Source of the DNA: a virus | Lineage: Duplodnaviria > Caudoviricetes | Direction: 5' to 3' (one strand) | IMG/VR virus record: IMGVR_UViG_3300001242_000005 | Span: 1 to 58,811 of that record | Length of the DNA stretch: 58,811 nt | Shown here: positions 801 through 43,730 of the stretch, piece by piece | Numbering within the stretch: position 1 is the stretch's first letter | How the letters are laid out: each line of letters begins with the position of its first letter | Notes under the pieces: generated by a model | The model's input: the letters and a program-made list of their open reading frames with translations, nothing else | Database searches by the model: none | What the model was told of the DNA's origin: nothing | Made by a program: the position numbers and the translations under genes

Positions 801-1709
801 ATGAGTCATTTTAGTGTGTTGGTGATAGGAGAAAACATCGAGCAGCAACTTGCTCCTTACCATGAATTTGAATGCACAGGGTGTAACGATGAATACGTAC
901 AGGATATCGATGTCACTGAAGAGTCTATCGAGTGGGGAACAGATAAGGAGACTGGTGAATTCTCTCTTGAAGAGGCGCTTGGATACCACGGACTTGACGA
1001 CAAGATCGTTGCCGATATCTCCGAGGTAGATACAAACGAGGCTCACAAATATGGGTACGCCATTGTCAAGGGTGGCAAGTTAATCAAGGCTGTCAACCGT
1101 ACCAATCCCAATAAACAATGGGACTGGTGGGTGGTAGGTGGGCGGTGGGCAGGTTACTGGCGTATGAAGGAAGGGGCTACAGGAAAGTTAGGCGAACGTT
1201 CTTTCCTTGGTTCGAATGCTGACAAAGGTACTGCTGATTCTGCACTAAAAAAAGACATAGACTTCGAATACATGATGGAGGCGGCGGGGTTAAAAGCTGG
1301 CTTGGTCTGGGACAAAATTCGCGCGGTCGTCTCTGAAGATGATTTTTCCACATTTGCTTCATGGGAAAAGATACGAGAGGCTCATAAGGGAGACATTGAT
1401 GCAGCCAGAACAGCGTACGGCGAGCAGTCTGCGGTCAAGAAATTCAAAACAATTGAAAACGTAGGTTTTTTTGACAAGGTGGAAAGATATTGCCTGACTC
1501 GCGACGAGTTCGTTCAGTCCGCCAAGGATAAAGCCATCTCCACCTTTGCTGTCGTAAAAGATGGTCAGTGGTATCAGAAGGGAGAAATGGGCTGGTGGGG
1601 TTGTGTCAGTGACGAAAAAGCCGGGTACGACTGGTGCGCTGAGTTTGCAAGCCTGATCGAAGGATTGCCTGAGGATACTCTTTTAACTGTGGTTGACTGT
1701 CACATTTGA
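801..1709 (+). CDS. Conserved phage hypothetical protein
   Basis: 302-aa ORF with GGAG SD; MSHFSVLVIG, NPNKQWDWWVVGGRW and VVDCHI pattern resembles phage early proteins. Confidence 0.75.
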   Translation: MSHFSVLVIGENIEQQLAPYHEFECTGCNDEYVQDIDVTEESIEWGTDKETGEFSLEEALGYHGLDDKIVADISEVDTNEAHKYGYAIVKGGKLIKAVNRTNPNKQWDWWVVGGRWAGYWRMKEGATGKLGERSFLGSNADKGTADSALKKDIDFEYMMEAAGLKAGLVWDKIRAVVSEDDFSTFASWEKIREAHKGDIDAARTAYGEQSAVKKFKTIENVGFFDKVERYCLTRDEFVQSAKDKAISTFAVVKDGQWYQKGEMGWWGCVSDEKAGYDWCAEFASLIEGLPEDTLLTVVDCHI

Positions 1710-26300: not shown

Positions 26301-29300
26301 CAATCCATCATCGATTGGGCCGGTCCCAACTTCGACGGCGTTATCGCCTTTGACGAGTCCCACAAGATGGGCAACGCCATCTCAATCAAAGAAGGTCGTT
26401 ATACCAAAAAACCGTCACAGATGGCCCTCGCCGCCCTGGATCTACAGAAGGCGCTACCCAAGGCCAAAGTGGTTTACGTGTCGGCGACCGGCGCCACCGA
26501 GGTCAGTAATCTGGCCTATGCCGAGCGGCTTGGTTTATGGGGGGCCGATACCGCCTTTGCAAATGCCTCAGCTTTTATTTCCCGCGTCTCCCAGGGCGGA
26601 ATTGCCGCGATGGAAGTCGTCGCAAGGGACATGAAGGCCATGGGCAGTTATCTTGCCAGGAAGCTCGCCTACAACGGCAAAAATGCGGCGTATCAGGTGA
26701 AGTACCGACGGCTGGAGCATGCTCTTTCAGGGCAACAGCGAGATATATACGACGAACTGGCCGGCGCATGGCAAACGGTTCTCGCCAACATTGATGACGC
26801 CCTGGCAATCACCGAGGCCGATTCCAATGGGCGCAGTCACGCATTGTCGGCTTTCTGGGGATCTCATCAGCGATTCTTCAACCAAGTACTCACGGCGATG
26901 CAAATGCCGTCTGTCATCACTTCCATCAAACAGGATGTAAAAGACGGCAAGGCGGTTGTCCTTCAGATCACCAATACCAACGAAGCAAGCACCAACCGGG
27001 CCTTGGCCAACACCGAGAACCTTGAAGACGTCGACATCACCCCCCGCGATCAGCTCATGCAGATGATCGAAAACTCCTTCCCCGTCCAGCAGTACGAACA
27101 ATATGAGGATGACGAGGGGAATATCAGGACCAGGCCAGTGGTTGACTCAAATGGCAATCCGGTCGTGAACCGTGAAGCCGTGGCGAAACGGGAGTCCTTG
27201 CTCAATAAACTCGGGAGTATCCGGGTACCGGACGCACCGCTTGACCAGATCCTCAATGTTTTCGGGGTTGGTGCCGTGGCTGAAGTAACCGGCCGGTCAA
27301 AGCGGGTCGTTACGGTCGATGACGGGACCGGACCGAAGAAGATCAGGCAAGGGTGGAGCAAGACGAAGGGTGTTGCCGACGCAGCCCAATTCATGGCCGA
27401 CAAGAAACAGATTCTCATCTTCTCCGAGGCGGGCGGAACCGGGGCAAGTTATCACGCCGACCTTGCGGCAATCAATCAGCGGCAGCGGAGCCATTACATC
27501 CTGCAGGCTGGATGGCGGGCCGATAGCGCCGTTCAAGGTCTTGGCCGCTCGCACCGATCGAACCAGGCGGTTGCTCCTGAGTATGTTCTGGTAACCACCG
27601 ACCTGAAGGGGCATAAGCGGTTCATATCGTCCATTGCCCGGAAACTGTCACAGCTCGGGGCACTCACCGAGGGAGAGCGCGGAGCTTCCTCTCAGGGGCT
27701 CTTTTCTGAGCGCGACAACCTTGAAAGCGAGTATGCAGCCGATGCGGTTGAGCAACTTATCCATCGTGTCCACCGCGGGCAGATCCCCGGCATGGACATC
27801 ACTATGCTTTCCCGCGAACTTGGTTTGCCGAACCTTGTTGACGAACATGGTCAACTGAACGCCACTCAAGTTCCGACCGTGCCGAGATTTTTGAACCGGA
27901 TCTTGAGCATGAAGATCGAGATGCAGGACAAGGTGTTCGACCTGTTCTCCACCTTGATGGACGCGAATGTGTCGAGGGCGGAAGAAAACGGCACCCTGGA
28001 CACCGGGCTTGAAACATTGAAGGCAAAGGGTATCAGGATTGTCGATAGTCAACCGGTCTACACGGATAAGCGATCCGGGGCGGTGACGGAGTATGTGCAA
28101 CTGGATGTCGATTACCCCGTCGATAAACTGGCCTACGACCCGCGACACAAGGTTGTCGTCAACAACCAGAGCGGCAAGCCATGGCAGCTTGTTTCGGAGA
28201 AAAGCACCACAACTGAGAGCGGTGACATTGTCGATGTCTTTGTTCTCAGGAATGGCCGGGGAAATCACAGAAACGTACTCAAGTCGGATTTCGGTGAGAA
28301 ATTCACAACCATAGCCAGCAACAAAGAAGCACGCGGGGCATGGGACAAGGCGCTCAAGGAATTACCGGAAACCGTTACTCAGCGTGAGCACCTGATCACC
28401 GGGGCATTGCTGCCGATATGGGATAAACTGAAAGGTCATCCCCGTATAGTGCGGGTGCAGGCCGGAAAGGAAACCATGCTCGGGCGGATTATTCCCGGCG
28501 AGAATATTTCCGAGGTCATGGCTTTGCTGGATGTCGAGGGCAAGGCGGTGGAGATGAGCCCGGAACAGGTGCAAGGCTCAGTGCTTGAGAACGGGCAGAC
28601 CATCACTCTTGACAATGGGTGGAAGATCCGGGCGAAGCGGGTTGCCGGCGAAAAGAGAATGGAGGTTGAGGGAGTCGGCTACGGAGATTACCGGGTCCTT
28701 GAAAACTACGGGGCTTTCACTGAACGAATCAATTACGTGACAAGGAACTTCATTCCTGTTGGCGAAGACGGAAATAGTGTTATTGAAAAAATTCTCGCCA
28801 ATCGCAAGATACTGACTGTGGTTGGTTCGCAGGGCGGTGCTACTCTCTATTCCAAAACCAACCAGCCATCCCCCTCGACATCCACCTTCATGGCCCAAGT
28901 CCAGTCGGAACTGAAAGCCTTCCTTGGTGCCGGCTACGACAACCTTGTGCAACGTGGCAAGTTGGAGATAGCTCGTAGCGCCGAAGAGCTCCCTGGCCCG
29001 ATGCGGAATGCTTTCCTGAAGATGGTCGCATGGCATGGCACCCGAAATGATGTCGATAAATTCAGCACTGAGAAGATCGGCACCGGCGAAGGGGCACAGG
29101 CTTACGGATACGGTTTGTATTTTGCTGGGTCGAGGGAGGTTGCCGAATGGTATAAAAAAATCCTTAATAATTATGACAAACTTAACGCATTAACTTACGA
29201 AGAAGACAGGTATCTTCCTGAGTTTATAACAGTTGAAATAATGAAATACGGTGAATACTCTGCCAGCAAATACCTCGACACCTATAAGAAATATTTACTC

Positions 29301-32300
29301 GACACTGACAGCCACTCTATTTCGATAAAACCAGAGAGGGTGAAAATAGTCAGCATCCTTGAAAAGCTTATAAAATCAGGAGATTATTCTTTCTCCAAGA
29401 AAGAGGGCAAACTCTACCAAGTAGAACTAGCCCCCGCCGAGGACGAATATTTACTCTGGGATAAACCGCTGAGCGAGCAGTCGGAGAGGGTTAAGGCGGC
29501 GGTAAAGACCGGTGCTGATAAATTTAAGGAGATTACAGACAGGGCAAATGCTCTCGAAGATACGGACGAAACGGTGCAAAAGTACCGGGACCTAATGGAT
29601 GAGAGAAAGAAATATGCCGGGTTTGCAGCAATCAACAGAAAACCAAAAGGGTATGACGGAAATTCTATCTACCACGCTGTATCTGACGGGGACAGATCAG
29701 GAGAGGCTGGCCGAATAGCTTCACAGACACTCCACTCCCTAGGTATAAGAGGAATCAAATACCTAGACGGATCATCCAGGTCATCCGGTGACGGCAATTA
29801 CAACTACGTCATATTCAATGACAGCGATATCGAGATCAAGGCAGTCTTCTCGAAGAAAGGCAAAGTCGTAGGTTCATATTTCCCGTACCAAAAGAAAATC
29901 GTCCTGTTTTCCGACGCGATGGCACCGGGCGATGCAAAACACGTATTCACCCATGAAGGCGGCCATGCGCTACTTTTTGAGGATAAAATCTTCCGGGCCC
30001 GCAAAACCAGAATCCTGAAGAACTTTGCCCGGCTCGCCCGCACCAGTCAAGCCGTGAAAGACGCATTCGCCAAAGTCCCGAAAGACACGGCAACCGGGTT
30101 GCGAGGTGAAGAGGCTATAATGTACTTCATCCAAGAGCCGAAGAACCACAACCATTCTATATTCCGGCGAGTAATATCGGCCGTCCGTGCCGCACTCTAC
30201 CGCATGGGATTGATGCAGGATATGAAGCTCAGCGAGTCCGATCTTGTGGCGCTATTCACTCAAGGGGTGAAGGCGTGGGCCAAGCGTGAGGTTGACCAGG
30301 ATTTGACGAAGGGCCGGGGGGTGAATGATATCCTGAATGAGTTTGGTGTCGGCCAGTTCGCGCAATCGGCAAAGATGCCCGTGAAGAGAGCGGCTCGGAA
30401 GATTCAGGGGATTGAGGCGTTTAAGAAGTGGTTTGAAGGGTCGGTCGTCACGGAGAATGGCAAGGTCGGCGGGGAGCCTTTGGTGGTTTACCATGGGACG
30501 ACTGAAAACTTTGACGCTTTTCAGACTGGGAATTCCGGAGCGTATTTCACCAACAAGCCAGAGGTCTCAAACGGGTACGCCGGCGGTGAAGGGAAATATT
30601 TTACTAAAAGCGCTGGTGTTGAATACAGAGGCAGAAATCTTGCCAGCGCGAAAGCCTTTCGTAAGCGGGCGATGGAACTTGAAGGCCATGACGGAATAAT
30701 CATCAAGGACCGGGGCCAGGTTATCGCATTTTCCCCGAATCAATTGAAGTCGGCCAGTGACAATACCGGAGCGTTCAGCCGGGATAATGATGATGTGCGG
30801 TATTCCGTATCGAGCAACCCAACGGCTCCGCTCTCCACCGAATCACTGGAAGAAGCGGCTAAAACGCTTGGATCATCGACCTATATCAAAAATAGCAAGG
30901 TCGATTCAACCTGGCTCGACCGCCTGCTCTCCACTCCGGAACATTACTTCAAGAAATTTGCAGCTGCCGGCAGGGTGCTGCAGGCGGCTCTTCTTCGCCG
31001 GGATATCCGCTTCGAGAACGAGCAGAAAATCCTTGGCGGCTTCGTGTCGTTCGTCCAGCAACTCAGGAAGGAAAACAAGGACGCCTACACCGAGGCCAAT
31101 GATTATCTGCTGGAGACAGACCAGGCGGCCGATGGTTTCCGGATCCGCTCCACCGATAATGACAGTTGGCAAGTTATCGCTCCAAAGTGGGCGGCGAAAG
31201 GCAACAGTACCGAGCTGGGAGAATTCACCGACGAGGCCGAGGCGATCAGGACCATGATCGAAGAAGAATCCCTTGCCCTGTCGATCAAAGGATATTCCAG
31301 GGAGGCCATAGAAGCCGTGAAGCAGGCCAGGGAGATGACCAACCGGGGCTTTGATGTCATGGCTGCAGACATGCGAAAGATCATCGCAGAGGCGAAAGAG
31401 AACGGCCTTCCTGATCCATTTATCGGCGACGGCAAACTTGATGAAGCCGGAAGGTATGGCGTGTATGCCGCAGGCAAGAAGAAACCGATAGCGCTCTTTG
31501 CTTCCGAGAAAGAGGCAAACGAGATGCTTGACCGGGCGGCACAGATGATCAGTTATGTGGTTACCAGCAAGAGCCGGGGAGAGAAGACCTTCATGAATGA
31601 ACTGAAGGCGAACAGGTGGGCAAAAGCGCACAGCGGGACCGTGAACGGGGTGAAGACATTCCAGAACCTCACGGTCAAGAAGCGCACCGACGCCGACTTG
31701 CGGCCCCTCACGGTTAAGCAGGCACTGGCGCAGATGGGCGACCTTCGCGGAATCTTCTTCCCTCGTATTCGTGAATCAGGCGAGTATGTGATGATTGCGA
31801 AGAAAGAAGGAGAAAACCCTATCCGCAAACACTTCGATATACCGACCTTTGACGACAAGAAGCCGACCCTGCAGAAATACCTGGGAATGGTCACGCCGAT
31901 GGGCCGAGAAATCAACAGGCTGAAGGCGAAAGGTTTTACGGTAACGTTCGAGAAAGACAAGTCGCCGGCAGAGGATGTCTTCGACGCGACCAACCTTATC
32001 ACTTCCCTTGACGCCATCCTACAGAGTTCGCTGACCACCATCGACCAGAACAACGAAACTGAGGTCCGGGCCGGCCAGCATATCAACCAGATTCTCACCA
32101 TGCAGGTTGCCGATATCTTCAAGAGTCGCGGTTATCTCTCCAGCAGGCTGAAACGGTTGGCCGGCGACGTGGTGTGGGAAGGCTACGAAGAGGACATGGG
32201 TAAGGCCCTTACCCAATACGGAAAGAACGTGGCGGCCGGCACCGCTAAACGTGACACCGCTCGGGCGATGGTCCTGGCTTTCTCCGGGCGTGATTATTCA

Positions 32301-33875
32301 TGGGCTGACTACAAGGCCGAGGTTGATAAGCCCGATTGGAAAGAATATCAGGAGATCATCGAGAAGCGCCGAATCGACGAGAAGCTGCAGAAGAACCTTT
32401 TCCGGGACGTACGGTCATTCATGATTGATATCTTGCGGAACGACGAGCAGGCAGACAGGATCATGGGCACCTTGAAGGGACTTGCTGTTATCAAGTATCT
32501 TGGCTTCCGGGTATCGAGCGCCGCGGTAAATATGACGAACATGGTCCAGGGCGTCCCGGGGACAATTGCGGGGTATACCGGCGAGTCGGTGGGTAAGTCG
32601 TTGCGGCGGGTAACCGGGGCGGCAGTGGCTTACGGCAAATACCGATCCGGCAAAGGCGACCTGTCGGAATCCGATCGAAACTTATTCCAGTTCATTTCGG
32701 CAAAAGGATGGGATGAGGCACAATTCAACCACGAAGCGGCAAGAGAATTGCGGTCAAAGTTGGGTGACACCTGGAACAAGTACATCGTGGGATGGGGGAT
32801 GCTGATGTTTGGTGCGGTTGAGAAGGCCAACCGGGCGATGACGCTCTTTGCTGCTTATAAGGCTGTGAAAGCCAAGGAGGCGACCGCCGAAGAATCGGTA
32901 ATCTGGGGGAAGGCCAAAGAGATCAGCGACAATGCCCATGGTGTCTATGGCAAAGAAACGCTTCCGGCCTGGGCAAGGGGAAAATTCAATCCCTTGCGGC
33001 TCACCTATACCTTCCAGAAATTCAGCCATAACTACATGATCAACGCACTCGATATCGGTTTCAACAAGAAGGAATACGGGGCGGCGGCATACCTGCTGCT
33101 GTCTCCCGCGGTTCTGGCCGGGTCCGGGGCGTCTCTCTTGGGACCGCTAGCGTTTGCCCTTGTGGGGGCGGTCCCTGGCGGCGGCGACGATCCGGAAGAA
33201 GAATTCTATGCATGGGCGGAAGAGATGTTCGGCGGCGGCTCTTTTGCTCGTCACGGGCTCTTTGGCGTGGCCGGGATTAATATCAAGGGATCCTTAGCAA
33301 TGCACCTGCCCATGCCGACCGATATTGCAAAGGCGACCGTGACGGACGCGCTCGGGCCTGTTGGTGGAATTTTCAGCGACATGGTGAAAGGAGTTAAACA
33401 TCTTTTTAAGGGCGAACTGGCGAAGGGTGTCGAGGGATTGCTTCCTACGGCATTCGGGAATGTGTCGAAGGCTCTCAGGGAATCAAGCGAGGGAATCACG
33501 ACGAGCAACTACGGCCAGGTATTCTATGGTGACGAGCCCTTGAAGGCAGACGCTACCGATGCATTCATCCGGTTTTTATCGTTCAACCCATCCAGGCTAT
33601 CCGGAATCAGAGAGATGCAGTGGAACGAAAAAGAGGTTGCGCAGAAATACCAAGAGAAAAAGTCAGAGATCTACTCGCAGATCAAGCGGAGCAGACTAAA
33701 AGGCGAAGGGATCACTCCGGAGATAATGAAAACCGTGAAGGACTACAACGATAAGGTTGCCGGGTCCGGCCGGCGCGATATTTCGCCGATCACTATGCGG
33801 GGAATAGTGACAATGCTGAAACGTAACTCGCGGCCCGGAAAAGTTGAGCGGGGAAGAATGGTTGCGGCGGAATAG
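20349..33875 (+). CDS. 4508-aa polyvalent (DarB-like) virion protein
   Basis: Gly-rich N-terminus; GNAT-like (~21780-22320); pyrophosphatase-like PSEAQK..GNY/DYGYI/DHVDVF (~23760-24190); N6-MTase QYSTP/LEPSAGIG/MNPPF (~24770-25330); strawberry-notch helicase GDGTGVGKG/FDESH/SATG/GRSHR (~25800-28050); LPD23-like WHGT..IGTGEGAQAYG.GLYF (~29030-29835); HEGGH metallopeptidase (~29952); ART-PolyVal FKKWF..PLVVYHGT (~30420-30805); PLxRFG-like C-terminal region. Confidence 0.9.
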   Translation: MAGLFDDTQGSQGSTGLFDDTQDDTPRGGFVPSAKKTIGQTVKGIGQAAADFIPGVSQDNAVKRYGQEVIDANPTAVNSFSDIPENPLKTITEATGNAAPSILGMVGAKALGSGITAAAPFTGPAAPVVAGIGQAVSWLGPTAVAALPSYGGIRDKQVESDTVEPDSFKNKAVAALGAATVGFIEQKFGPQDWAMRLSTKAGRDSVAKMLATKTLGGSVAKGIGIGGAVEGGEELVQSPVEQLASFENPLTRESLTDTAFGGVMGAVGGGVIGGGFGGVNHLANPKQSAATDPAQSGIGQPPPGAPQPPSPGTSSVTPITPADPATPTGPISRALGTIAAPTTTIPTQPGIDTPPAADPAQVSQRLGNPIIQQTGPGSPDNRPTPAGPTARPTFDTTAPIGDKVNLTYIIADYGPEVARELSVARKGGTPISIDDAVAAVERRKQQGQPTTRQLAETHAETQEFDKGIPLNRTSYQEINGIGYSEYTNPQTGIVDVYLSAFGDNDFVGYMRVYENGKPTNRFTSKLERQTSKKGVTKEMLSNIASMLPEGHEYTENDTISTDGLRHFQNQLRNGYEIVLDQSGKPKTSAAILSGASRNNDLGIGQTGDFTNLEVKTDADFTRASQVVAKLIAPFGLDTSAIRRVGNNIEVQMPVLRRSVKNTQQENKQTPRQEVSQEPKKEMTTAESITKGMSEIAAGMDLGSRDQMAEYIKAGKIDRLTFRRPDSIAAARANPSYNLKDNSDGSVTVVGINNSNNEWIGVAPLREPVDINGAVGRNESQPLGVDQQQPQQLADESPIPTTVQIIDLKAEHGRKVGNAVAQARANKESISLPEAYRRAGVEIPTNNTPNASVASAPQGVPSSQITPEHQALSSIRNPKYTTQPTEEQRPIFRELAKKGFAASEDGLTYSITKKGVRQLKRLGGAVVAGSNEQTNTQTNTGGNSLAVNTGAASVADKTGQIDGQTGGPINDNLQSNTAEMATADNQQTGKGISGAAGGDIGKRGSGESGQTQTDEVGSGGGNGGRAGILQQYDTSGNGADRRGSKQGVAGDSGIPEKVGKPGEQSIEVDGGPTQIQKPADTDGRKPLREPEPNSVREPGRESLGESGAQFQLKNQPVNRPAVIDNPDSVAHGQKANLAPSEAQKEKGNYLKSHVNLDGLEVTIENPAGSTRSGTDKTGKTWSVKMAHDYGYIKGSVGYDKDHVDVFMVPGYQGGGETAYIVNQHNKDGKFDEHKVVFGAKSEADAMSIYNANYAKGWTGGKSVAAMPMAEFKEWVKSEGPKKGAVKQSTKEQPNGNSIYPDTKQSGQAETGKVGEEAKARNLNADLSAGAKEAKPGPKAAEKPGEVTFTVKSLQTGKEEEFTVKENPVAESAPANSTQPESAPSQIAAKVREYLARGERFFSRRLFAWADEAYGGTQAEGKYTPKDAYDALELGINQYLADGFTFKSTNPAEQIKELEGLLFMVPTQTKRTKEQDDFQQYSTPPTLAFVAGWVANLKKNDSFLEPSAGIGGLAVFAKIAGAKSVAVNELSSRRRDILKEMGFDQVYGENAEQLNNVMPDSVKPTVIVMNPPFSSTGGRLSRNKTKYGAGHIEQALKRLEPGGRLVAIVGEGMAADKTTFRTWWKEIEKEYTVRANVGMNGEGFRKYGTTFDNQILVIDKTGPTRDTIVTGKVDTYTDLIPLLQGVRDARTATAQQSTDQQAGKEKAPGSEAGTKPVETVLPTTPAVGNGQRGIANGTGDRRQDRPDVKLEAGNLDERGNEPQSGGRGADIDKGQVAVSEGSGVEAAGPDRESTPDTDKLETSRKEKQQSSGDSIFEGYQPTVSIRGAKPHPADLVESTAMAAVKLPDITYRPRIPVSAVKAGKLSDVQLEAITAAGQAHQDTLPNGEQRGFFIGDGTGVGKGREIAGILWDNWNQGRKKSIWVSKDRTLAKDAKRDMSGIGWDDKLLIEQGSVKAGESLPKRDGVLYTAYSTLASAAKIGQLSRLQSIIDWAGPNFDGVIAFDESHKMGNAISIKEGRYTKKPSQMALAALDLQKALPKAKVVYVSATGATEVSNLAYAERLGLWGADTAFANASAFISRVSQGGIAAMEVVARDMKAMGSYLARKLAYNGKNAAYQVKYRRLEHALSGQQRDIYDELAGAWQTVLANIDDALAITEADSNGRSHALSAFWGSHQRFFNQVLTAMQMPSVITSIKQDVKDGKAVVLQITNTNEASTNRALANTENLEDVDITPRDQLMQMIENSFPVQQYEQYEDDEGNIRTRPVVDSNGNPVVNREAVAKRESLLNKLGSIRVPDAPLDQILNVFGVGAVAEVTGRSKRVVTVDDGTGPKKIRQGWSKTKGVADAAQFMADKKQILIFSEAGGTGASYHADLAAINQRQRSHYILQAGWRADSAVQGLGRSHRSNQAVAPEYVLVTTDLKGHKRFISSIARKLSQLGALTEGERGASSQGLFSERDNLESEYAADAVEQLIHRVHRGQIPGMDITMLSRELGLPNLVDEHGQLNATQVPTVPRFLNRILSMKIEMQDKVFDLFSTLMDANVSRAEENGTLDTGLETLKAKGIRIVDSQPVYTDKRSGAVTEYVQLDVDYPVDKLAYDPRHKVVVNNQSGKPWQLVSEKSTTTESGDIVDVFVLRNGRGNHRNVLKSDFGEKFTTIASNKEARGAWDKALKELPETVTQREHLITGALLPIWDKLKGHPRIVRVQAGKETMLGRIIPGENISEVMALLDVEGKAVEMSPEQVQGSVLENGQTITLDNGWKIRAKRVAGEKRMEVEGVGYGDYRVLENYGAFTERINYVTRNFIPVGEDGNSVIEKILANRKILTVVGSQGGATLYSKTNQPSPSTSTFMAQVQSELKAFLGAGYDNLVQRGKLEIARSAEELPGPMRNAFLKMVAWHGTRNDVDKFSTEKIGTGEGAQAYGYGLYFAGSREVAEWYKKILNNYDKLNALTYEEDRYLPEFITVEIMKYGEYSASKYLDTYKKYLLDTDSHSISIKPERVKIVSILEKLIKSGDYSFSKKEGKLYQVELAPAEDEYLLWDKPLSEQSERVKAAVKTGADKFKEITDRANALEDTDETVQKYRDLMDERKKYAGFAAINRKPKGYDGNSIYHAVSDGDRSGEAGRIASQTLHSLGIRGIKYLDGSSRSSGDGNYNYVIFNDSDIEIKAVFSKKGKVVGSYFPYQKKIVLFSDAMAPGDAKHVFTHEGGHALLFEDKIFRARKTRILKNFARLARTSQAVKDAFAKVPKDTATGLRGEEAIMYFIQEPKNHNHSIFRRVISAVRAALYRMGLMQDMKLSESDLVALFTQGVKAWAKREVDQDLTKGRGVNDILNEFGVGQFAQSAKMPVKRAARKIQGIEAFKKWFEGSVVTENGKVGGEPLVVYHGTTENFDAFQTGNSGAYFTNKPEVSNGYAGGEGKYFTKSAGVEYRGRNLASAKAFRKRAMELEGHDGIIIKDRGQVIAFSPNQLKSASDNTGAFSRDNDDVRYSVSSNPTAPLSTESLEEAAKTLGSSTYIKNSKVDSTWLDRLLSTPEHYFKKFAAAGRVLQAALLRRDIRFENEQKILGGFVSFVQQLRKENKDAYTEANDYLLETDQAADGFRIRSTDNDSWQVIAPKWAAKGNSTELGEFTDEAEAIRTMIEEESLALSIKGYSREAIEAVKQAREMTNRGFDVMAADMRKIIAEAKENGLPDPFIGDGKLDEAGRYGVYAAGKKKPIALFASEKEANEMLDRAAQMISYVVTSKSRGEKTFMNELKANRWAKAHSGTVNGVKTFQNLTVKKRTDADLRPLTVKQALAQMGDLRGIFFPRIRESGEYVMIAKKEGENPIRKHFDIPTFDDKKPTLQKYLGMVTPMGREINRLKAKGFTVTFEKDKSPAEDVFDATNLITSLDAILQSSLTTIDQNNETEVRAGQHINQILTMQVADIFKSRGYLSSRLKRLAGDVVWEGYEEDMGKALTQYGKNVAAGTAKRDTARAMVLAFSGRDYSWADYKAEVDKPDWKEYQEIIEKRRIDEKLQKNLFRDVRSFMIDILRNDEQADRIMGTLKGLAVIKYLGFRVSSAAVNMTNMVQGVPGTIAGYTGESVGKSLRRVTGAAVAYGKYRSGKGDLSESDRNLFQFISAKGWDEAQFNHEAARELRSKLGDTWNKYIVGWGMLMFGAVEKANRAMTLFAAYKAVKAKEATAEESVIWGKAKEISDNAHGVYGKETLPAWARGKFNPLRLTYTFQKFSHNYMINALDIGFNKKEYGAAAYLLLSPAVLAGSGASLLGPLAFALVGAVPGGGDDPEEEFYAWAEEMFGGGSFARHGLFGVAGINIKGSLAMHLPMPTDIAKATVTDALGPVGGIFSDMVKGVKHLFKGELAKGVEGLLPTAFGNVSKALRESSEGITTSNYGQVFYGDEPLKADATDAFIRFLSFNPSRLSGIREMQWNEKEVAQKYQEKKSEIYSQIKRSRLKGEGITPEIMKTVKDYNDKVAGSGRRDISPITMRGIVTMLKRNSRPGKVERGRMVAAE
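23254..23682 (+). CDS. Nested +1-frame ORF A (142 aa) in the giant gene
   Basis: AGGAGGT 7 nt upstream of ATG; MIIFNRIRLRWPLQIISKPEREFLERR. Confidence 0.5.
   Translation: MIIFNRIRLRWPLQIISKPEREFLERRVAILEKEEAVNQVRRKPTKSAVAAAMAGGQVYCSNTIPAGTVLTEEVVSKAWLEIAESLKRSENLESSRLKWMEDQLRFKNPPILMGENRCENLSQTVCESLGESRWENPAHNFS
24226..24312 (+). CDS. Nested +1-frame ORF B (28-aa basic peptide)
   Basis: AAGGAG SD; MATVFIPIPNRAGRRKLAKLARRLRRVI*. Confidence 0.45.
   Translation: MATVFIPIPNRAGRRKLAKLARRLRRVI
25405..25743 (+). CDS. Nested +1-frame ORF C (112 aa)
   Basis: AAGGGGTG SD; globular helical-looking sequence MQEPLPLNNRPINRLAKKKL...LAWKLLDRIE overlying a disordered linker of the giant protein. Confidence 0.6.
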   Translation: MQEPLPLNNRPINRLAKKKLQEVKREPNPSRLYCQQLLLWAMDSGALQTEPEIEDKIGQMSNWKPETWMNEVTNLSQEEGVPISTRDKSLSPKDLAWKLLDRIESLHRIRTS

Positions 33876-38839: not shown

Positions 38840-38963
38840 GGTTGACTACCCTGGGCGTGACCCTGAGGACAAAATCGACGCCGACCCGGTAAAGCCGAAA
38901 GTCGGAATATCAATCGATCTGGCGGCGGTATGGCGATGGATTAAGAGGAGGCTGAGGAAGTGA
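38820..38963 (+). CDS. 47-aa peptide with a basic amphipathic C-terminus
   Basis: MKSARNEVDYPG...IDLAAVWRWIKRRLRK*; GTGA overlap with the next gene. Confidence 0.45.
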   Translation: MKSARNEVDYPGRDPEDKIDADPVKPKVGISIDLAAVWRWIKRRLRK

Positions 38964-39193
38964 CGAAATTTCTTGTATTTGCAATTATCATAATCGCCGT
39001 CTGCTGTGGAATTCGCTTCGGTATAGAAATAACTGAGCAGGTAGAAATAAAGCGACACAACGCCAAGATGGAAGAGTTGCAAGAGAATCATTACAGAGTT
39101 CTCGAAGAGATAATGGCATCCGGTGTCAGCGGGAGGCAGAGCAATGCTTTGCCTGAAGGGTTTATGGAAAAGCGTAACGATGAGCCGATATGA
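38960..39193 (+). CDS. N-terminally anchored membrane protein
   Basis: GAGGAGG upstream; FLVFAIIIIAVCCGI TM. Confidence 0.6.
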   Translation: MTKFLVFAIIIIAVCCGIRFGIEITEQVEIKRHNAKMEELQENHYRVLEEIMASGVSGRQSNALPEGFMEKRNDEPI

Positions 39194-39432
39194 AAGACTT
39201 TTGCACCCTCTCCCCCGACCACCCGTTCGGCTACGATATATCGGCATGATGTGCTCGCCACGACGACGATTACGCAGAGCAACTCGGGACCAGGCTACAA
39301 GCCGACTTGAGACTGTTCCTGTGAATCCGTCGAGCAGCCAATCAGGAGATTGCGCAAAAATATTACGATGCGGTCAGGTTGTGCGGATGGCCGTTCTGGA
39401 TGAAGGCGAAATTTTGTAAGGAGCGAAAATGA
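39190..39432 (+). CDS. Phospholipase A2-like protein with two in-frame UGA codons (putative selenocysteines U20 and U45)
   Basis: MKDFCTLSPDHPFGYDISA[TGA]CARHDDDYAEQLGTRLQADLRLFL[TGA]IRRAANQEIAQKYYDAVRLCGWPFWMKAKFCKERK*; ATGA overlaps at both ends; intact H-D-x-x-Y, AD and YY.AVR..G motifs. Confidence 0.75.
39325..39374 (+). promoter_or_regulatory. SECIS-like hairpin after the second UGA
   Basis: CAATC-AGGA-GATTG stem-loop, loop starting 19 nt after the UGA with G at loop position 2; extendable lower stem CCGTCG/CGATGCGG. Confidence 0.55.
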
Positions 39433-39704
39433 TCGACAAACTACTGGTTAATCTCGGAGTAAAGTACCTCGCCGCCAAGATGGACGGCCACAAGACCTAT
39501 TTCGGCGGAATCGTCCTCATGCTCATCGGCGCATCGAAAATCATCACCGGGACAGTGGGTTTTATTGGCACGATGTTCCCGGACCTTGCCACTCCCATGG
39601 ACCCGCAGAATTGCCTTGACCTGCTACTTGCCGGCGGCGGGTCCTTCGGGACTGGTTTGGCTGTTTTTGGCATCGGCCACAAGATCGAAAAGCAGGGGGT
39701 GTGA
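39429..39704 (+). CDS. Holin-like membrane protein
   Basis: TAAGGAG SD; DGHKTY and GIGHKIEK motifs with hydrophobic helices; lysis cassette context. Confidence 0.6.
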   Translation: MIDKLLVNLGVKYLAAKMDGHKTYFGGIVLMLIGASKIITGTVGFIGTMFPDLATPMDPQNCLDLLLAGGGSFGTGLAVFGIGHKIEKQGV

Positions 39705-39976
39705 CGATGACCGGATCCGACCACCGAAAGCTAACCGATGATGATATCCAAGCATTTATCGTTGCACTCAACGAAAACGAGAGCCATTGCCGATTCAAAG
39801 GTATCGATCCGCAACGGCTTAACGCTTCTGTTGAGTTCACCGAGGCGATAATTTCAGCGATCAGCGACAGCAAAAAAACGGTTCGAAATGCATTGATAAA
39901 GCTCGCCATTTACGGAATTGTCGGTCTTGCTTTGCTCGGTGCCGGGATAAAAATCAAGGAGTCAGTGAAGCCATGA
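39701..39976 (+). CDS. C-terminal TM protein (holin or antiholin-like)
   Basis: LTDDDIQA, H.CRF and a C-terminal hydrophobic helix. Confidence 0.6.
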   Translation: MTMTGSDHRKLTDDDIQAFIVALNENESHCRFKGIDPQRLNASVEFTEAIISAISDSKKTVRNALIKLAIYGIVGLALLGAGIKIKESVKP

Positions 39977-39994: not shown

Positions 39995-40160
39995 CACAGT
40001 AGAACGAATCCAACAACTACTTGATTGTGCCGTTCGTGTCCCGCTCTACGATGCAACAGGCAAGATTATTGTGCCTGCAGGCGTGGATGCTGCTGTCGAG
40101 GCGAGGGCGTACCGGAAATGTCTGCAGATTGCGAAAGAGGAAGAGGAAAACGATGACTGA
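39990..40160 (+). CDS. 56-aa hypothetical protein
   Basis: MSTVERIQQLLD...EEENDD*; overlaps the endolysin start. Confidence 0.5.
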   Translation: MSTVERIQQLLDCAVRVPLYDATGKIIVPAGVDAAVEARAYRKCLQIAKEEEENDD

Positions 40161-40722
40161 TCGACACTTTGACATCGCTTTCAGGTTAACGATGCAGAAT
40201 GAGGGATTGGGTAAACTGACCAACGATTCGCGCGACCCGGGCGGTATGACTTATTCAGGGATTTCTCGCCGATACTGGCCGGAATGGGCCGGGTGGGTCA
40301 CGATTGACCAGTGCGAGCAACCATTCCCTCCTGATACCATAGATCATTTGACAGATCTCACGAAATCTTTTTACCGGGTGAATTTCTGGAACCGGATGCA
40401 GGGTGACGAATTCGCCGAAATCTCGCCGGCAATCGCTTACGAGGTATTTGACACCGCGGTAAATATGGACGTGACCCGGGCCGTCGAATTCCTGCAGACC
40501 GGTTACAATGTCGGGCGGGGAGAGTATGGCGCCGATCTGGAGGTTGACGGGCGACTCGGGCCGAAGACTTTGGAGGCGATCAGGAATTACATGGCCAGCA
40601 AGCCGGGCACCCCGGCCCTTAATGAAGAGATCCTGCTGAACTGCATGAATGGGGAGCAGTATATTTTCTACAAAGCGAACCCGAGGCGGAAGTACTTCAG
40701 GGGCTGGTTCAGGAGGGTGTAG
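40153..40722 (+). CDS. Endolysin, glycosyl hydrolase family 108 with a PG-binding region
   Basis: NEG..TNDSRDPGGMTYSGIS, FDTAVN, VDGRLGPKT and GWF.R motifs; GAGGA SD before ATG 40153. Confidence 0.88.
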   Translation: MTDRHFDIAFRLTMQNEGLGKLTNDSRDPGGMTYSGISRRYWPEWAGWVTIDQCEQPFPPDTIDHLTDLTKSFYRVNFWNRMQGDEFAEISPAIAYEVFDTAVNMDVTRAVEFLQTGYNVGRGEYGADLEVDGRLGPKTLEAIRNYMASKPGTPALNEEILLNCMNGEQYIFYKANPRRKYFRGWFRRV

Positions 40723-40726
40723 TATC

Positions 40727-40960
40727 ATGATCAACCACAAACCCGCGAAACTCACATACCACTGCTGTTGCTGCAATCGTGTCCGGGGTGTTGATGGTAA
40801 ATATTATGTGGTGCCGTACAATCACATTCCCGGTACAAAAGCGAGCCACGGATACTGTGGGCCCTGCCAAAACGAGATAATGAGTCGGCGCAGGGTGTCA
40901 GCTGATGGCGTGAGGGGAGCAAAAATGGTGCCGGAAAACTTCTCGCAAAAAGGTGTGTAG
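40727..40960 (+). CDS. Small zinc-ribbon protein
   Basis: AGGAGG SD; CCCC...SHGYCGPC. Confidence 0.6.
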   Translation: MINHKPAKLTYHCCCCNRVRGVDGKYYVVPYNHIPGTKASHGYCGPCQNEIMSRRRVSADGVRGAKMVPENFSQKGV

Positions 40961-41193
40961 AAATGTGTAGAAATGTGTTGTTTTTTTGACCCTTTCAAAC
41001 TGTTCTTTTTATCAATACTTTCAACTGGCTGGGGGACGAGGGCTCGAACCTCGATAAGCGGAGTCAGAGGTCGAATTGCGTCTCTGATTATTAATTATAT
41101 CAATATGTTGTGATAGCCTATTTCAGTGTAGAAAAAACGTTATGTCAAACTGTCCTTCAATTACAGATGGTTGTGTAAGATAATTTTCTACAC
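40955..41193. promoter_or_regulatory. Putative integrase arm-type sites flanking the att core
   Basis: GTGTAGAAA at 40955, 40965 and 41126, and inverted at 41185. Confidence 0.65.
41026..41069 (-). mobile_element. attP core: 3' half of tRNA-Gln(CTG)
   Basis: Minus strand CTCTGACTCCGCTTATCGAGGTTCGAGCCCTCGTCCCCCAGCCA gives anticodon loop, T-arm GGTTCGA, acceptor strand and CCA; 5' half absent; near the integrase. Confidence 0.9.
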
Positions 41194-41267
41194 ATTCGCT
41201 CGTTTTTATAGTAATGTTGGCCGATGAAGCCGTGTCTATCTGCACAACAAAAAGCGAGGATTAAATC

Positions 41268-41882
41268 ATGTCTGTAAGGCCGCATCCGTCTAAGTCAAAG
41301 AAAAATCCAGGCATGTGGTGGTTGGTAGATATCGGCAGAGGTCGCGAAAGGAGACAGATAGTTTTTAATGGGACTGAGAGCGGTGCTTGCGCCTACGAGA
41401 TCCAGATAAGGAGTGGTGCGACTGTTATCCCTGGCAAGAAAGAAAAAAATCTTGTTGTCGCCGCACTGCCACTAAAATCAGAAAATGGTCCTTTCGTCTA
41501 CTTCCTTCAACAAGGAAAGCTCGGTCCTATTAAGATAGGATTTACCGACCAGTCTCTCTATACAAGGGTCAGGGCGCTCCAAACAGCCAACCCAGAGAAA
41601 CTAAGGCTCATCGGTTATATAACTGGCGGAACTGAGCAAGATGAATATCACCTGCATGAAAAGTTTAAAACAACAAGGATTCACGGTGAATGGTTTTACC
41701 CATCAGCTGAATTGCTTGGTTTTATTAAAACAGTGTCACACTCACATGTTGCTCAAGAAATTATAAGGACCGTCATAAACCTTAGACAGTTACTGTCTGG
41801 AATAGATATGGAGAAATCAAACATGATCTTGAAACACCTGTTTGAGGGGAAAACGGCAGAAATTGAAGAGTTGCTTAGGTAA
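41268..41882 (+). CDS. Fusion of an integrase N-terminal-like domain and a GIY-YIG (T5orf172/MUG113-type) nuclease
   Basis: FVYF...IKIGFT...R..LQTANP..L...E..LH..F...RIHGEWF; first ~50 aa align with the N-terminus of the adjacent integrase. Confidence 0.8.
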   Translation: MSVRPHPSKSKKNPGMWWLVDIGRGRERRQIVFNGTESGACAYEIQIRSGATVIPGKKEKNLVVAALPLKSENGPFVYFLQQGKLGPIKIGFTDQSLYTRVRALQTANPEKLRLIGYITGGTEQDEYHLHEKFKTTRIHGEWFYPSAELLGFIKTVSHSHVAQEIIRTVINLRQLLSGIDMEKSNMILKHLFEGKTAEIEELLR

Positions 41883-41896
41883 ATCCACCCCTCCCG

Positions 41897-42955
41897 TCAC
41901 ACCCCCACCTTCTCTCGCATTGCGCGGGCTTCGTCGCCTACAAAATCCCGAGTGACATTGGTATAAATTTTGTTCGTCGTCTCGATGCTTGAATGACCAA
42001 GTATCCGCTGCAGGGCGTGGGGGTTCATCCCAGACTCGGCGGCCAGGGTCGCGAAGGTGTGGCGCAGGATGTGATGGTTCACTTTCCGGCCAATCTCCGA
42101 GAGAGTTGCAGCCCGCTTTAGCTCCTTCCAGATCGTCGTAAATGGGTGCGGCTCCTCTCCGTCTGCTCTTGATCTTGGGTTGACGGTCAGATACCCGCTG
42201 AACCGCTTTGACATTACCGGCTCAAGCTCGTTTTCAAACCGATCGCTCATAAACGGCACCATCCTTCTCTTGTTCCCCTTTCCCAGAACCGACAACACCC
42301 TCCTTGACTCGTCAATATCTTCAATGCGGAGTTTCAACGCTTCCTCCAAACGCAAGCCGTGATCAGCCATAAGCAGGAACAGCAACCGATATTCCGGCCT
42401 GATATGGGTGTAGAGAGCATTGAGTTGCCGGCGGGTAAGCGGCTTTGTTTCCTCTTCAGGGATGGTCCTTTTTTTCGGAAACTTGGGAATTTTCAGATTG
42501 AGCGCAGGACAATATCCATTTTGTTCGGCAAATCGCAACATTGACGAGAAATAATTGAGATGCTTGTTGATGGTTGTCGGGGTTAATCCTTTTTCTAAAA
42601 GATGAACTTTGAAGTCGTTAAATATCTGCGTGTTCAGGCTTAATGGATGATAGTTTCCAAGCAGGGGCACGATATAGAGGTCGATGCTGAAACGGATATC
42701 CCGAACGGTGCGCGGCGATGATTCGGTGGCATACCAGGCGAGAAATGGGAGAATGAGATCCTTCACCCGGGTGTTCGATGGAGAGATTGCCTTTTCGCCG
42801 CGGATGGCCTGCCTGAGATCACGTTCGATCTTGGCGGCGCTCTCGAAAGATCCCTGAAACGGGGTTTGGTCGCGACTCCCGGCCCGGCCTACATCGATTA
42901 GCCACCATATTTCGCCGGGCTTAGCCTTTTTGGGGTAATACCTGCGGACGCTCAT
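41897..42955 (-). CDS. int: Tyrosine integrase
   Basis: GLRLEEAL, GKGNK.R, HILRHTFAT, LGH and TNKIY catalytic motifs; likely start MSVRRY right after the repressor stop. Confidence 0.93.
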   Translation of the reverse strand: MSVRRYYPKKAKPGEIWWLIDVGRAGSRDQTPFQGSFESAAKIERDLRQAIRGEKAISPSNTRVKDLILPFLAWYATESSPRTVRDIRFSIDLYIVPLLGNYHPLSLNTQIFNDFKVHLLEKGLTPTTINKHLNYFSSMLRFAEQNGYCPALNLKIPKFPKKRTIPEEETKPLTRRQLNALYTHIRPEYRLLFLLMADHGLRLEEALKLRIEDIDESRRVLSVLGKGNKRRMVPFMSDRFENELEPVMSKRFSGYLTVNPRSRADGEEPHPFTTIWKELKRAATLSEIGRKVNHHILRHTFATLAAESGMNPHALQRILGHSSIETTNKIYTNVTRDFVGDEARAMREKVGV

Positions 42956-42956
42956 C

Positions 42957-43730
42957 TCAATGCTTACGGTTGAACGGTTCGGCCGTGGTGTCGGCCTCGG
43001 TGGCCAGAACAATTATATACTCACTGCCATCGATCCTGATCGGCTTGCAATCCAGTTTGTATCGCAAGTTGTCAATTATTTTGTAACCACTCGATGCGGT
43101 TGCTGTTGTTTTTGCAATATTCAGCGGACATATGTCAAGATTCGTACACGCATCACCTTCACAGTTGTCGCAGAATTTCTTTCCCTTAAGGATCTTCAGA
43201 GAACGGCTCTTGATGTTTTGCTCGACAACGATATCATCGTGAATCAGCATCGCCGATACCGGCATTTCGTTAAATGCCGTTTGCCAATAAACTCTCTCCT
43301 TTTCAATGTCCCGGCACTGGCCAACAAATGCCTGGATAGATGTGGATGCGATCGCAACTGCATTCAGGACGTCCATAGAACTGACCTTCGCTGGAAATGT
43401 TTTTTCTGGGGCCGGGAATGCCAAGGGAGAAACAAAACGCAGGTGAGGCGCGTGGCGTGCGTCGGACTGCTGCTGCTTTCTCGCCCCTATCAGTATCAAG
43501 TCGTCTTCGTACATTCCAAGCGCCTTGCATATCTTTCTCCGCCATTTTGCGGTGCAACCAGAGCGCCTATTAAGCACTCTGCTCAGATTAACATCGTTGA
43601 TGTTTGCTCGCTCAGCAATGTCTTTCTGAACCAAGTCTTTTTCCTCGATGACTGCCGACAACCCGGTAAGGAAAAAATCTAAATCTTCTTTTGTCATATC
43701 CATTAATTGCTCTTCGATGCTCTCATTCAT
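42957..43730 (-). CDS. CI-like repressor: XRE HTH plus a C-terminal Cys-rich PAS-like domain
   Basis: QKDIAERANINDVNLSRVLN HTH; WQTAFNEMPVSAMLI..N..GKKFCDNC....C.....CP; GGGAG SD; divergent from the Cro-like gene. Confidence 0.75.
   Translation of the reverse strand: MNESIEEQLMDMTKEDLDFFLTGLSAVIEEKDLVQKDIAERANINDVNLSRVLNRRSGCTAKWRRKICKALGMYEDDLILIGARKQQQSDARHAPHLRFVSPLAFPAPEKTFPAKVSSMDVLNAVAIASTSIQAFVGQCRDIEKERVYWQTAFNEMPVSAMLIHDDIVVEQNIKSRSLKILKGKKFCDNCEGDACTNLDICPLNIAKTTATASSGYKIIDNLRYKLDCKPIRIDGSEYIIVLATEADTTAEPFNRKH

Follow-up and report, generated by a model that had tools for sequence, protein, structure and literature searches.

A phospholipase A2-like phage gene with in-frame TGA codons at cysteine columns: a candidate bacteriophage selenoprotein

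The locus

We analyzed the whole of IMG/VR record IMGVR_UViG_3300001242_000005 (Caudoviricetes), a complete virus record of 58,811 bp with direct terminal repeats, referred to here as the window. Between two small genes on the plus strand lies a frame for a phospholipase A2 (PLA2)-like protein that is interrupted by two in-frame TGA codons. An earlier note, made from the letters alone, had proposed that this is a hidden phage selenoprotein with a diselenide bridge, and comparison with relatives suggests that the UGAs of what appears to be a functional phage gene of PLA2 fold are most likely decoded as selenocysteine (Sec), which is the best explanation overall. The features of the locus are as follows.

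38960..39193, plus strand: upstream gene of 77 amino acids, with a hydrophobic segment at the N terminus and a TGA stop that overlaps the PLA2-like start codon
39190..39432, plus strand: PLA2-like gene, 80 sense codons, two in-frame TGA and a terminal TGA
39247..39249, plus strand: in-frame UGA, codon 20, at a cysteine column coupled to column 45
39322..39324, plus strand: in-frame UGA, codon 45, at a cysteine column
39429..39704, plus strand: downstream protein of 91 amino acids that contains two hydrophobic segments and, by inspection only, resembles a holin

The frame starts with the ATG at 39190 and stops with the TGA at 39430–39432, and its sole interruptions are the TGA codons 20 and 45, so that it reads MKDFCTLSPDHPFGYDISA (TGA) CARHDDDYAEQLGTRLQADLRLFL (TGA) IRRAANQEIAQKYYDAVRLCGWPFWMKAKFCKERK (TGA). 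ATGA overlaps join it to the upstream stop (39190–39193) and to the downstream start (39429–39432). With the frame's own end, these overlaps mean that TGA serves as a true stop three times within a short stretch. Against a crude gene set, no other TGA-interrupted frame of the window yields a coherent protein in an otherwise uncovered gap. The gap-filling frame, its two internal TGA codons and both overlaps are all as the earlier note described them, and its translation was reproduced, including the segments ISA-TGA-CARHDDDY, QADLRLFL-TGA-IRR and YYDAVRLCG. Neither neighbor could be placed in a family: the upstream protein has no confident match in Pfam or PHROG, and the downstream protein has no match in either.

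In-frame stops on covarying cysteine columns

A HMMER scan of 1.84 billion representatives returned 173 matches at E ≤ 0.001, small proteins of about 70–100 residues, and the homologue alignment comprises 149 of the best 150 of these, the 1449-residue P0020 being left out. H24 and D25 are invariant (149/149), and Y28 and D39 are found in 147 and 145 of the 149 proteins; the window protein has these catalytic-type residues together with cysteines at positions 5 and 21. Column 20, where the first TGA falls, is cysteine in 121/149 homologues and Ala, Ile, Val, Leu, Asn or Pro in the other 28, while the adjacent column 21 is cysteine in 147 and serine in 2. Column 45, the site of the second TGA, is cysteine in 115/149. 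Columns 20 and 45 are coupled, with cysteine at both in 115 proteins, at neither in 28 and at column 45 alone in none; Cys-20 is accompanied once by another residue at column 45 and five times by a protein that ends just before it.

Those five proteins (P0018, P0065, P0112, P0118 and P0147) end one residue short of column 45. For P0018, this 'end' is a TGA in its DNA (locus L003), beyond which the conserved C-terminal half goes on in frame. P0018 and P0065 are called 'hypothetical protein' at their source, and P0118 is nameless. No tryptophan occurs at columns 20, 21 or 45 in the 149 homologues. The earlier note had placed both stops at cysteine positions, and the homologues agree, having cysteine at both stop columns in 115/149 and neither tryptophan nor variable residues there. 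An in-frame UGA aligned with cysteine of homologues, and coding conservation beyond the UGA, are features of bacterial selenoprotein genes that we find here. From the covariation, residues 20 and 45 are most likely a family-specific bonded pair. The TGA pattern in 39190–39432 is beyond chance, given the conserved positions, the covarying cysteine columns and the unique gap-filling frame.

Relatives carrying in-frame TGA codons

Protein-guided and DNA-pattern scans yielded 16 distinct TGA-bearing sequences, including the window, with the following codons at the three columns (TGY, TGC or TGT).

Window (= L006), L002 and L022: TGA at column 20, TGY at column 21, TGA at column 45
L007: TGT at column 20, TGA at column 21, TGA at column 45
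L004 (= L008), L010 (= L011), L017, L018 and L020: TGA at columns 20, 21 and 45
L003, L027, L028, L030, L034 and L035: TGY at columns 20 and 21, TGA at column 45
L024 (= L025): TGT at column 20, TGA at column 21, TGC at column 45

TGA occurs at column 45 in 15 distinct sequences and at columns 20 and/or 21 in 10, and no stop lies outside columns 20, 21 and 45 in any of the 16 frames. When the DNA pattern demanded TGA at column 20 alone, all eight loci found (8/8) also had TGA at column 45. Close pairs differ in which column carries TGA, as at columns 20–21 of the window and L007 (TGA-TGT and TGT-TGA), L022 and L034 (TGA-TGT and TGC-TGC) and L002 and L017 (TGA-TGC and TGA-TGA); at the level of sequence, this is the classic pattern of Cys/Sec interchange. 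A further DNA-pattern scan gave 11 loci, comprising six family members and five chance matches that were rejected (the mutually near-identical L026, L029, L033 and L036, and L031), and L005, a Microbulbifer contig from the genome-contig scan, was a false positive with only a short peptide in common. A control pattern that called for TGY at columns 20, 21 and 45 gave 77 loci, of which 74 passed the family hidden Markov model and 64 were distinct. A protein word-index search gave no candidate, and blastn of 3 kb against cultured phages gave no match.

Two members stand apart. L024 (6389–6448, minus strand; identical in L025) is a distant member with TGA at column 21 only and cysteine at column 45, and it has a hairpin of 7–8 bp with a small GUU-type loop about 21 nt downstream; as it lies on a separate branch of the tree, it probably represents an independent Cys-to-TGA event. 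L064 has cysteine at all three columns, is nested among the TGA-45 forms in the tree and, in the 48 nt after its column-45 codon, has a 6-bp hairpin with a G-less UAAA loop at the position where the TGA-45 forms have theirs. This hairpin may have survived from a TGA-bearing ancestor that reverted to cysteine.

The gene is conserved across its stops

Metagenome contig L006 is identical to the window across the gene. Over both TGA codons, Logan contigs from four runs of three studies match the window letter for letter; three of these runs span both codons well inside a contig and the fourth ends at 39328, and some of the samples are possibly the source of the record itself. The runs are labeled groundwater and soil metagenomes. 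Independent assemblies carry TGA rather than TGC or TGT, which answers the concern about sequencing error.

A close relative, L007, has a protein 91% identical to that of the window, with 26 synonymous and 7 non-synonymous codon changes, two of the latter being U/C swaps. Synonymous changes are found before, between and after the stops; codons 49–62 are unchanged, and 13 of the 23 codons in 22–44 are synonymously changed. In more distant relatives (53–64% identity), the stops keep the same columns, and a conserved YYDAVRLxGW motif follows 3′ of the stop. The earlier note had allowed for a pseudogene under relaxed selection, whereas close relatives retain TGA under purifying selection (26 versus 7). 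Judged by these sequence comparisons, the gene is very probably real and recoded. The PLA2-like start codon is also the exact point from which the window and L007 become similar in DNA (39190–39976 and L007:3001–3798; 78% over 801 nt); the sequence upstream does not align, which marks a mosaic boundary.

A hairpin specific to UGA-45 forms

Downstream of UGA-45 lies a hairpin resembling a selenocysteine insertion sequence (SECIS).

39337..39355, plus strand: SECIS-like hairpin; 5′ arm 39337–39343, loop AGGA 39344–39347, 3′ arm 39348–39355, C39353 bulged

This is the CAATC-AGGA-GATTG element that the earlier note had located 19 nt past the second UGA, and it is present there with a stem of 5 + 2 bp. 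A hairpin starts 14–19 nt past the U of the codon in 15/15 UGA-45 sequences. Their loops (AGGA, UGGA, AGUU, CGGGAU, CGUGA, GGC, AGGAAAUAG, GGU, AGUUCG, AGGCUG and GGAC) all have a G within the first two nucleotides, mostly followed by G or U. An alignment of six sequences has 88% of cells paired and compensatory change at 4 of 7 pairs (slid controls, 7–48%), and its consensus energy is −7.24 kcal/mol against a column-shuffle null of −0.51 ± 0.95, a value reached by 1 of 400 shuffles. The peptides encoded over the hairpin differ widely, which places the conservation at the RNA level.

A strict hairpin was found in 13/15 UGA-45 sequences and 19/64 Cys-45 controls, and the UGA-45 hairpins are more stable both in mean energy (−9.4 versus −5.6 kcal/mol, P = 2e-4) and in z-score (−1.95 versus −0.46, P = 2e-5). 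The bacterial SECIS consensus, as given in the Fig. 2A legend of a recent review (PMC13188914), has a loop of 3–9 nt, a stem of 4–16 bp, a spacing of 16–37 nt, a G as first or second loop nucleotide and an energy of at most −7.5 kcal/mol. In our own implementation, 12/15 UGA-45 sequences and 11/64 Cys-45 controls fit this consensus, and the window hairpin has its geometry in loop, stem, loop G and spacing. The hairpin is specific to the TGA-45 forms. Rfam, searched over 38900–39800 at E up to 10, returned only two chance snoRNA-like matches.

The first UGA and the inter-UGA stem

The earlier note had also pointed to a weaker stem after the first UGA (TGCTC at 39252 with GAGCA at 39277). This stem does appear in the minimum-energy fold, but it closes a 15-nt loop, folds no better than 141 of 200 shuffles and has a z-score of +0.58, and so finds no support as a SECIS. 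A local SECIS after UGA-20 was rejected more generally: there was no consensus structure, single-sequence z-scores ran from −0.21 to +0.88, and there was no enrichment over controls. Hairpins fitting the model occur locally after the first UGA only in L007, L022 and L024 of the 10 sequences with a first UGA (controls, 6/64), which leaves 7/10, including the window, without one. In the 47 nt 3′ of the first UGA (window 39264–39300, and relatives), the mean z-score was +0.95 against +0.09 in controls, and such poor local folding is consistent with this stretch being left available for pairing at long range.

RNAalifold on six sequences predicted a long-range helix, helix A, joining 39264–39271 to 39324–39332, with 42 of 48 cells paired and compensatory change in 4 of 8 pairs. 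Because helix A standing alone is only suggestive, we turned to duplex and partition-function tests, applied to sequences beyond those from which it had been defined. In fixed register, the nine sequences with both a first UGA and UGA-45 form 8, 8, 7, 5, 8, 7, 7, 5 and 3 of the 8 pairs, against means of 4.3 for sequences with UGA-45 and cysteine at columns 20 and 21 (Cys-Cys) and 3.0 for the 64 controls, none of which reaches 7. Composition-corrected duplex z-scores were −1.81, −0.44 and 0.04 for the same three groups (P = 4.5e-5 for the first against the controls, and 0.009), and the expected pairs between the two regions from the partition function differed likewise (P = 4e-6 and 8e-4):

First UGA with UGA-45 (n = 9): 17.4, 14.2, 10.5, 13.5, 11.6, 10.7, 12.7, 11.6 and 2.8 pairs; at least 8 in 8 sequences
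Cys-Cys with UGA-45 (n = 6): mean 2.9, maximum 7.9; at least 8 in none
All-Cys controls (n = 64): mean 2.2; at least 8 in 4

The sole exception among the nine is L022 (2.8), which has its own local SECIS-like hairpin, absent from its Cys-20 sibling L034; L024, which lacks UGA-45, likewise has its own local hairpin. Folds of 114 nt place the whole inter-UGA segment in one long stem that ends 0–4 nt before the SECIS hairpin:

39252..39336, plus strand: predicted long stem, 39252–39296 pairing with 39300–39336; begins 5 nt after UGA-20 and abuts the SECIS hairpin

The z-scores of these folds are −2.83 in the window (−38.4 kcal/mol), −2.67 in L004 and −4.42 in L010, whereas L002 shows the same closure with a z-score of +0.80, and L003, which has no first UGA, forms separate small hairpins. 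The long-range fold is specific to the first-UGA forms.

In place of a SECIS of its own, UGA-20 may thus rely on the 75-nt inter-UGA stem, which would bring the UGA-45 hairpin beside it. A ribosome holding UGA-20 in its A site would have melted the first 12–15 nt of the stem, and the SECIS hairpin, about 5 nt past the 3′ strand of the stem base, would sit at the mRNA entrance. Once the stem had been unwound, the same hairpin would arrive at the mRNA entrance again, linearly, at UGA-45, and one SelB-bound hairpin could serve both positions. We put this forward tentatively, as an arrangement that may work as described and in which our confidence stays somewhat on the doubtful side.

A protein of the microbial secreted PLA2 fold

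PF09056 was the sole PLA2 family among Pfam matches at E up to 10, the animal secreted PLA2 (sPLA2) family being absent from them, and it scored 27.0, 28.5 and 29.4 bits when the TGA codons were read as Cys, Trp and Gly (cut-off, 29.4). The family profile matched, over its own whole length, fungal and bacterial PLA2s in the Protein Data Bank (PDB; 4AUP, 7YGK, 1FAZ and 8K1W) at E values of 8e-10 to 2e-8. An AlphaFold model (predicted local distance difference test, 88.4) has four helices, with residue 20 starting helix 18–30 and residue 45 near the end of helix 35–49. Its best PDB matches by Foldseek are 4aup_A and 4aup_B, the Tuber borchii PLA2 (probability 1.00, template-modeling score 0.54–0.67, E 0.02–0.055). 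PHROG 6098, of unknown function, matches over the full length at E 9.3e-19. The catalytic His-Asp, the conserved Tyr and the distal Asp are all present, and as read from the sequence the protein has no N-terminal hydrophobic segment.

The PLA2-like assignment of the earlier note therefore holds at the level of profile and fold (PF09056, the PDB PLA2 profiles and the Foldseek match to 4AUP), and by the structural model the product, 80 residues long, takes the fold of microbial secreted PLA2s and would have phospholipase activity. The 16-residue spacing of C5 and C21, and residue 45 at Asp+6, presumably mirror the 29–45 and 44–105 disulfides of animal sPLA2.

Decoding of the UGA codons

We propose that UGA-20 and UGA-45 are decoded as selenocysteine by SelB and tRNA-Sec of the host. 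Because they occupy both positions of the family-specific bonded cysteine pair, the two residues would be expected to form a diselenide bridge between two long antiparallel helices. The conserved pair C5–C21 would form a disulfide in the window and a selenylsulfide in relatives with TGA at column 21.

The earlier note had held that the Sec machinery is not phage-encoded, and we found no selB, selD or tRNA-Sec in the window or in two complete relatives. The selB and selD searches were also negative in two partial relatives, and tRNA-Sec had no match at the cut-off in the four records searched. The machinery must then be the host's. ARAGORN found no tRNA in the window. In L012, the complete 64-kb phage of L002, a candidate at 1501–1583 (minus strand) was rejected, as it scored 22.8 bits with the tRNA-Sec model against a cut-off of 47 and has a GUA anticodon that does not read UGA. 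This sequence has a long extra arm, resembles tRNA-Tyr and was not called by ARAGORN; a tRNA-Pro(TGG) lies elsewhere in that phage, at L013:549–625.

Other accounts of the TGA codons agree with parts of this evidence. Were the frame a decaying pseudogene, or its stops assembly errors, one would understand why gene callers leave it uncalled in the window and relatives and why database entries end at column 45 as hypothetical proteins; given the balance of synonymous over non-synonymous changes spanning both stops, the identical independent contigs and the column-fixed stops at 53–64% identity, we consider this extremely improbable. Nor is it at all likely that TGA is sense throughout the phage or its host, as Trp (code 4) or Gly (code 25). 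Code 25 is used by some candidate-phyla bacteria, which are common in groundwater and soil, the window occurs in metagenomes of both kinds, and the Gly reading has the top Pfam score (29.4 bits). Against this, TGA is the commonest stop, ending 33 of 62 crudely called genes including both neighbors; no other coherent TGA-containing frame was found in the window; and Gly or Trp at the near-invariant Cys-21 column (L007, L004 and L010) would break the family pattern. Read with table 11, a single open reading frame runs for 4508 codons (20349–33875, plus strand) with no in-frame TGA and takes up about 23% of the genome.

The UGAs might also act as attenuators, with most ribosomes stopping at codon 20 and a minor near-cognate read-through (Trp, Cys or Arg), stimulated by downstream structure, holding a dangerous phospholipase at a very low level. 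Downstream structures do stimulate read-through in other systems, and the first UGA is followed not by a canonical SECIS but by a stable stem that begins 5 nt past it. Attenuation would not demand, however, that stops fall only on three cysteine columns, including near-invariant Cys-21 beside the catalytic His, that Trp be missing from these columns in the homologues, or that the UGA-45 hairpin have SECIS spacing and a G in its first two loop positions, and we think it improbable. A similarly small chance goes to SECIS-dependent insertion of Cys or some other residue, for example by a tRNA-Sec-like tRNA of Cys identity with a SelB-like factor, the product then being an ordinary disulfide-bridged PLA2-like protein. 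Every comparative signal, from the homologous cysteines to the hairpin and the TGA/TGY toggling, fits Cys equally well, and Cys-recoding systems have reportedly been found in anaerobes. Such systems are rare, though, and no such tRNA occurs in the window or the loci scanned; moreover, TGA would bring no gain over TGY and would cost efficiency, yet it stands at up to three columns in 16 sequences.

Selenocysteine is in our judgment the probable inserted residue, on the strength of the comparative pattern, and several observations weigh against this reading or parts of it. The hairpins of the window and L007 reach −6.8 kcal/mol, 0.7 short of the −7.5 limit, and the single-sequence z-score of the window hairpin is only −0.76. 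The PF09056 score of the Cys reading lies below the gathering threshold. The window has no local SECIS after UGA-20, where local structure is unenriched and if anything depleted; helix A alone was matched in 6 of 100 column-shuffled alignments, and the 88 columns without the hairpin have a consensus energy at the null level (148/400). All eight long-stem sequences belong to a single sub-clade of a tree that was built on 45 residues and is poorly resolved, which leaves few independent contrasts (L003, nested there without the stem, and L022 with its local hairpin). Finally, adjacent UGA-UGA at columns 20–21 occurs in five lineages, and we know of no bacterial case decoded by SelB. Since it would take two successive deliveries, it keeps the rival accounts alive. 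That selenium serves as a structural cross-link, that one SECIS serves two or three UGAs up to 25 codons apart and that lysis or infectivity depends on the selenium status of the host are suggestions we regard as tentative.

Genomic context and possible role

The neighborhood includes an endolysin gene.

40021..40722, plus strand: endolysin; Glyco_hydro_108, E 1.5e-17; PG_binding_3, E 1.3e-08; phrog_315 endolysin, E 3e-30

The PLA2-like gene is followed by this glycoside hydrolase family 108 (GH108) endolysin at a distance of about 0.7 kb in the window. In L002 a GH108 endolysin follows at 0.4 kb, and the gene has a homologue of the two-segment membrane protein on its other side; in L007, a Peptidase_M15_3 gene follows about 1 kb downstream. 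The two-segment membrane protein, downstream in the window, adjoins the PLA2-like gene also in L002, L007, L008 and L010, lipobox proteins flank the gene in L008 and L010, and small membrane proteins lie on both sides of it in the window. Gene order is inverted between L002 (2732–3231) and the window (39190–39704), the membrane protein preceding the gene in L002 and following it in the window, with ATGA overlaps at both junctions.

The gene also lies 3′ of large tail-fibre-like open reading frames in the window, L002, L007, L008 and L010. In cultured phages, a Cys-only homologue directly follows the annotated tail-fibre gene of a P2-like Mannheimia phage (JN255163.1, 18245–18487; L014), and another overlaps the annotated tail-fibre gene of Aurantimonas phage AmM-1 (AB967974.1, 15512–15721). 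These two lie outside any lysis cassette, and the Aeromonas copy is among hypothetical proteins. Of the lysis-cassette placement made by the earlier note, the proximity to endolysin and membrane genes stands, whereas a lysis role is not established, because the gene sits at a tail-fibre/lysis boundary and its cultured-phage homologues lie beside tail-fibre genes. We infer that the protein would hydrolyze phospholipids at the cell envelope and, for this clade, lean slightly toward lysis over entry. Either role in a phage of an anaerobe would be well served by a cross-link that needs no oxidizing compartment to form.

Farther along, a MUG113 (T5orf172-like) domain protein (41268–41882, plus strand) adjoins a tyrosine integrase (41897–43012, minus strand), and a 300-bp gap at 40960–41267 could hold the phage attachment site, attP. 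The integrase and possible attP suggest a temperate phage whose host could perhaps be traced through its attachment site. A tblastn search with the terminase against cultured phages gave only 25–27% matches to phages of unrelated hosts and no hint of the host.

Comparison with known systems and implications

The candidate resembles bacterial genes read through SelB and a SECIS, such as Escherichia coli fdhF, in having UGA at a column that is cysteine in homologues and a coding-region hairpin shortly downstream, with a small apical loop of G followed by G or U. The spacing of 17–22 nt in the scored hairpins is inside the 16–37 nt range in the figure legend cited above (PMC13188914). Unlike fdhF-type genes, it is phage-borne, has two or three UGAs in 80 codons, UGA-UGA in five lineages and no local first SECIS, and its Sec residues are predicted to act as a structural cross-link, not in a redox active site.

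For one SECIS acting on two UGAs there are parallels outside bacteria. According to Mariotti et al. (2016, PMC4989117), the SECIS of metazoan SelL acts on two UGAs two codons apart, and archaeal VhuD holds the record distance for one SECIS, 50 codons; diselenides and multi-UGA genes with a single SECIS are described there as rare and known from eukaryotes and archaea, with only one additional diselenide case known at the time of writing. The present gene is like SelL and VhuD in that one SECIS would act on two UGAs, but theirs are located in untranslated regions and work remotely through another mechanism, whereas here a coding-region hairpin of bacterial type would work with a long stem. It is also like SelL and Lokiarchaeota PrxL.1 in that two Sec residues are predicted to bond mutually. 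Those proteins have UxxU redox motifs (U, Sec) in thioredoxin-like folds, while here the residues are 25 apart and would replace a structural inter-helix disulfide. Literature searches found no bacterial precedent for one SECIS serving a distant UGA 25 codons upstream.

As for the protein, microbial PLA2s (PF09056; 4AUP of Tuber borchii, 1FAZ of Streptomyces violaceoruber, 7YGK and 8K1W) have the same C..PD...C..HD..Y...D signature and helical fold, and the phage protein differs in being about 40 residues shorter, lacking a signal peptide and being phage-borne. The extra Cys/Sec immediately before the conserved Cys, with its partner at Asp+6, is absent from the aligned PLA2 structures. Ralstonia, Aeromonas, Aurantimonas and Mannheimia phages carry Cys-only members of PHROG 6098, with TGY at columns 20, 21 and 45. 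Among viruses, poxvirus glutathione peroxidases are genes reliant on host Sec machinery; they are captured host redox enzymes of animal viruses with a eukaryotic SECIS, whereas the present gene is phage-borne, its SECIS is of bacterial type and its fold is not a redox one. In the sources that literature searches reached, we found neither a phage selenoprotein nor a PLA2 in a phage lysis cassette. The main text of the 2026 review of prokaryotic selenoproteomes (PMC13188914) contains none of the words phage, virus, viral, phospholipase and diselenide.

The gene is a candidate founder of a selenoprotein family that would be new, as would its setting, and its SECIS arrangement is unusual. If the reading is true, it would be, as far as those searches show, the first bacteriophage-encoded selenoprotein, and viral selenoproteomes are probably under-counted, since gene callers truncate or miss such genes. 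Its RNA architecture offers a testable answer to how a bacterial SECIS in a coding region could serve distant UGAs. A diselenide or selenylsulfide can arise and last under conditions that do not allow a disulfide, a property that would suit an enzyme bridged through cysteines and made in an anaerobe's cytoplasm, and Sec as a structural cross-link would bear on why organisms pay for selenocysteine.

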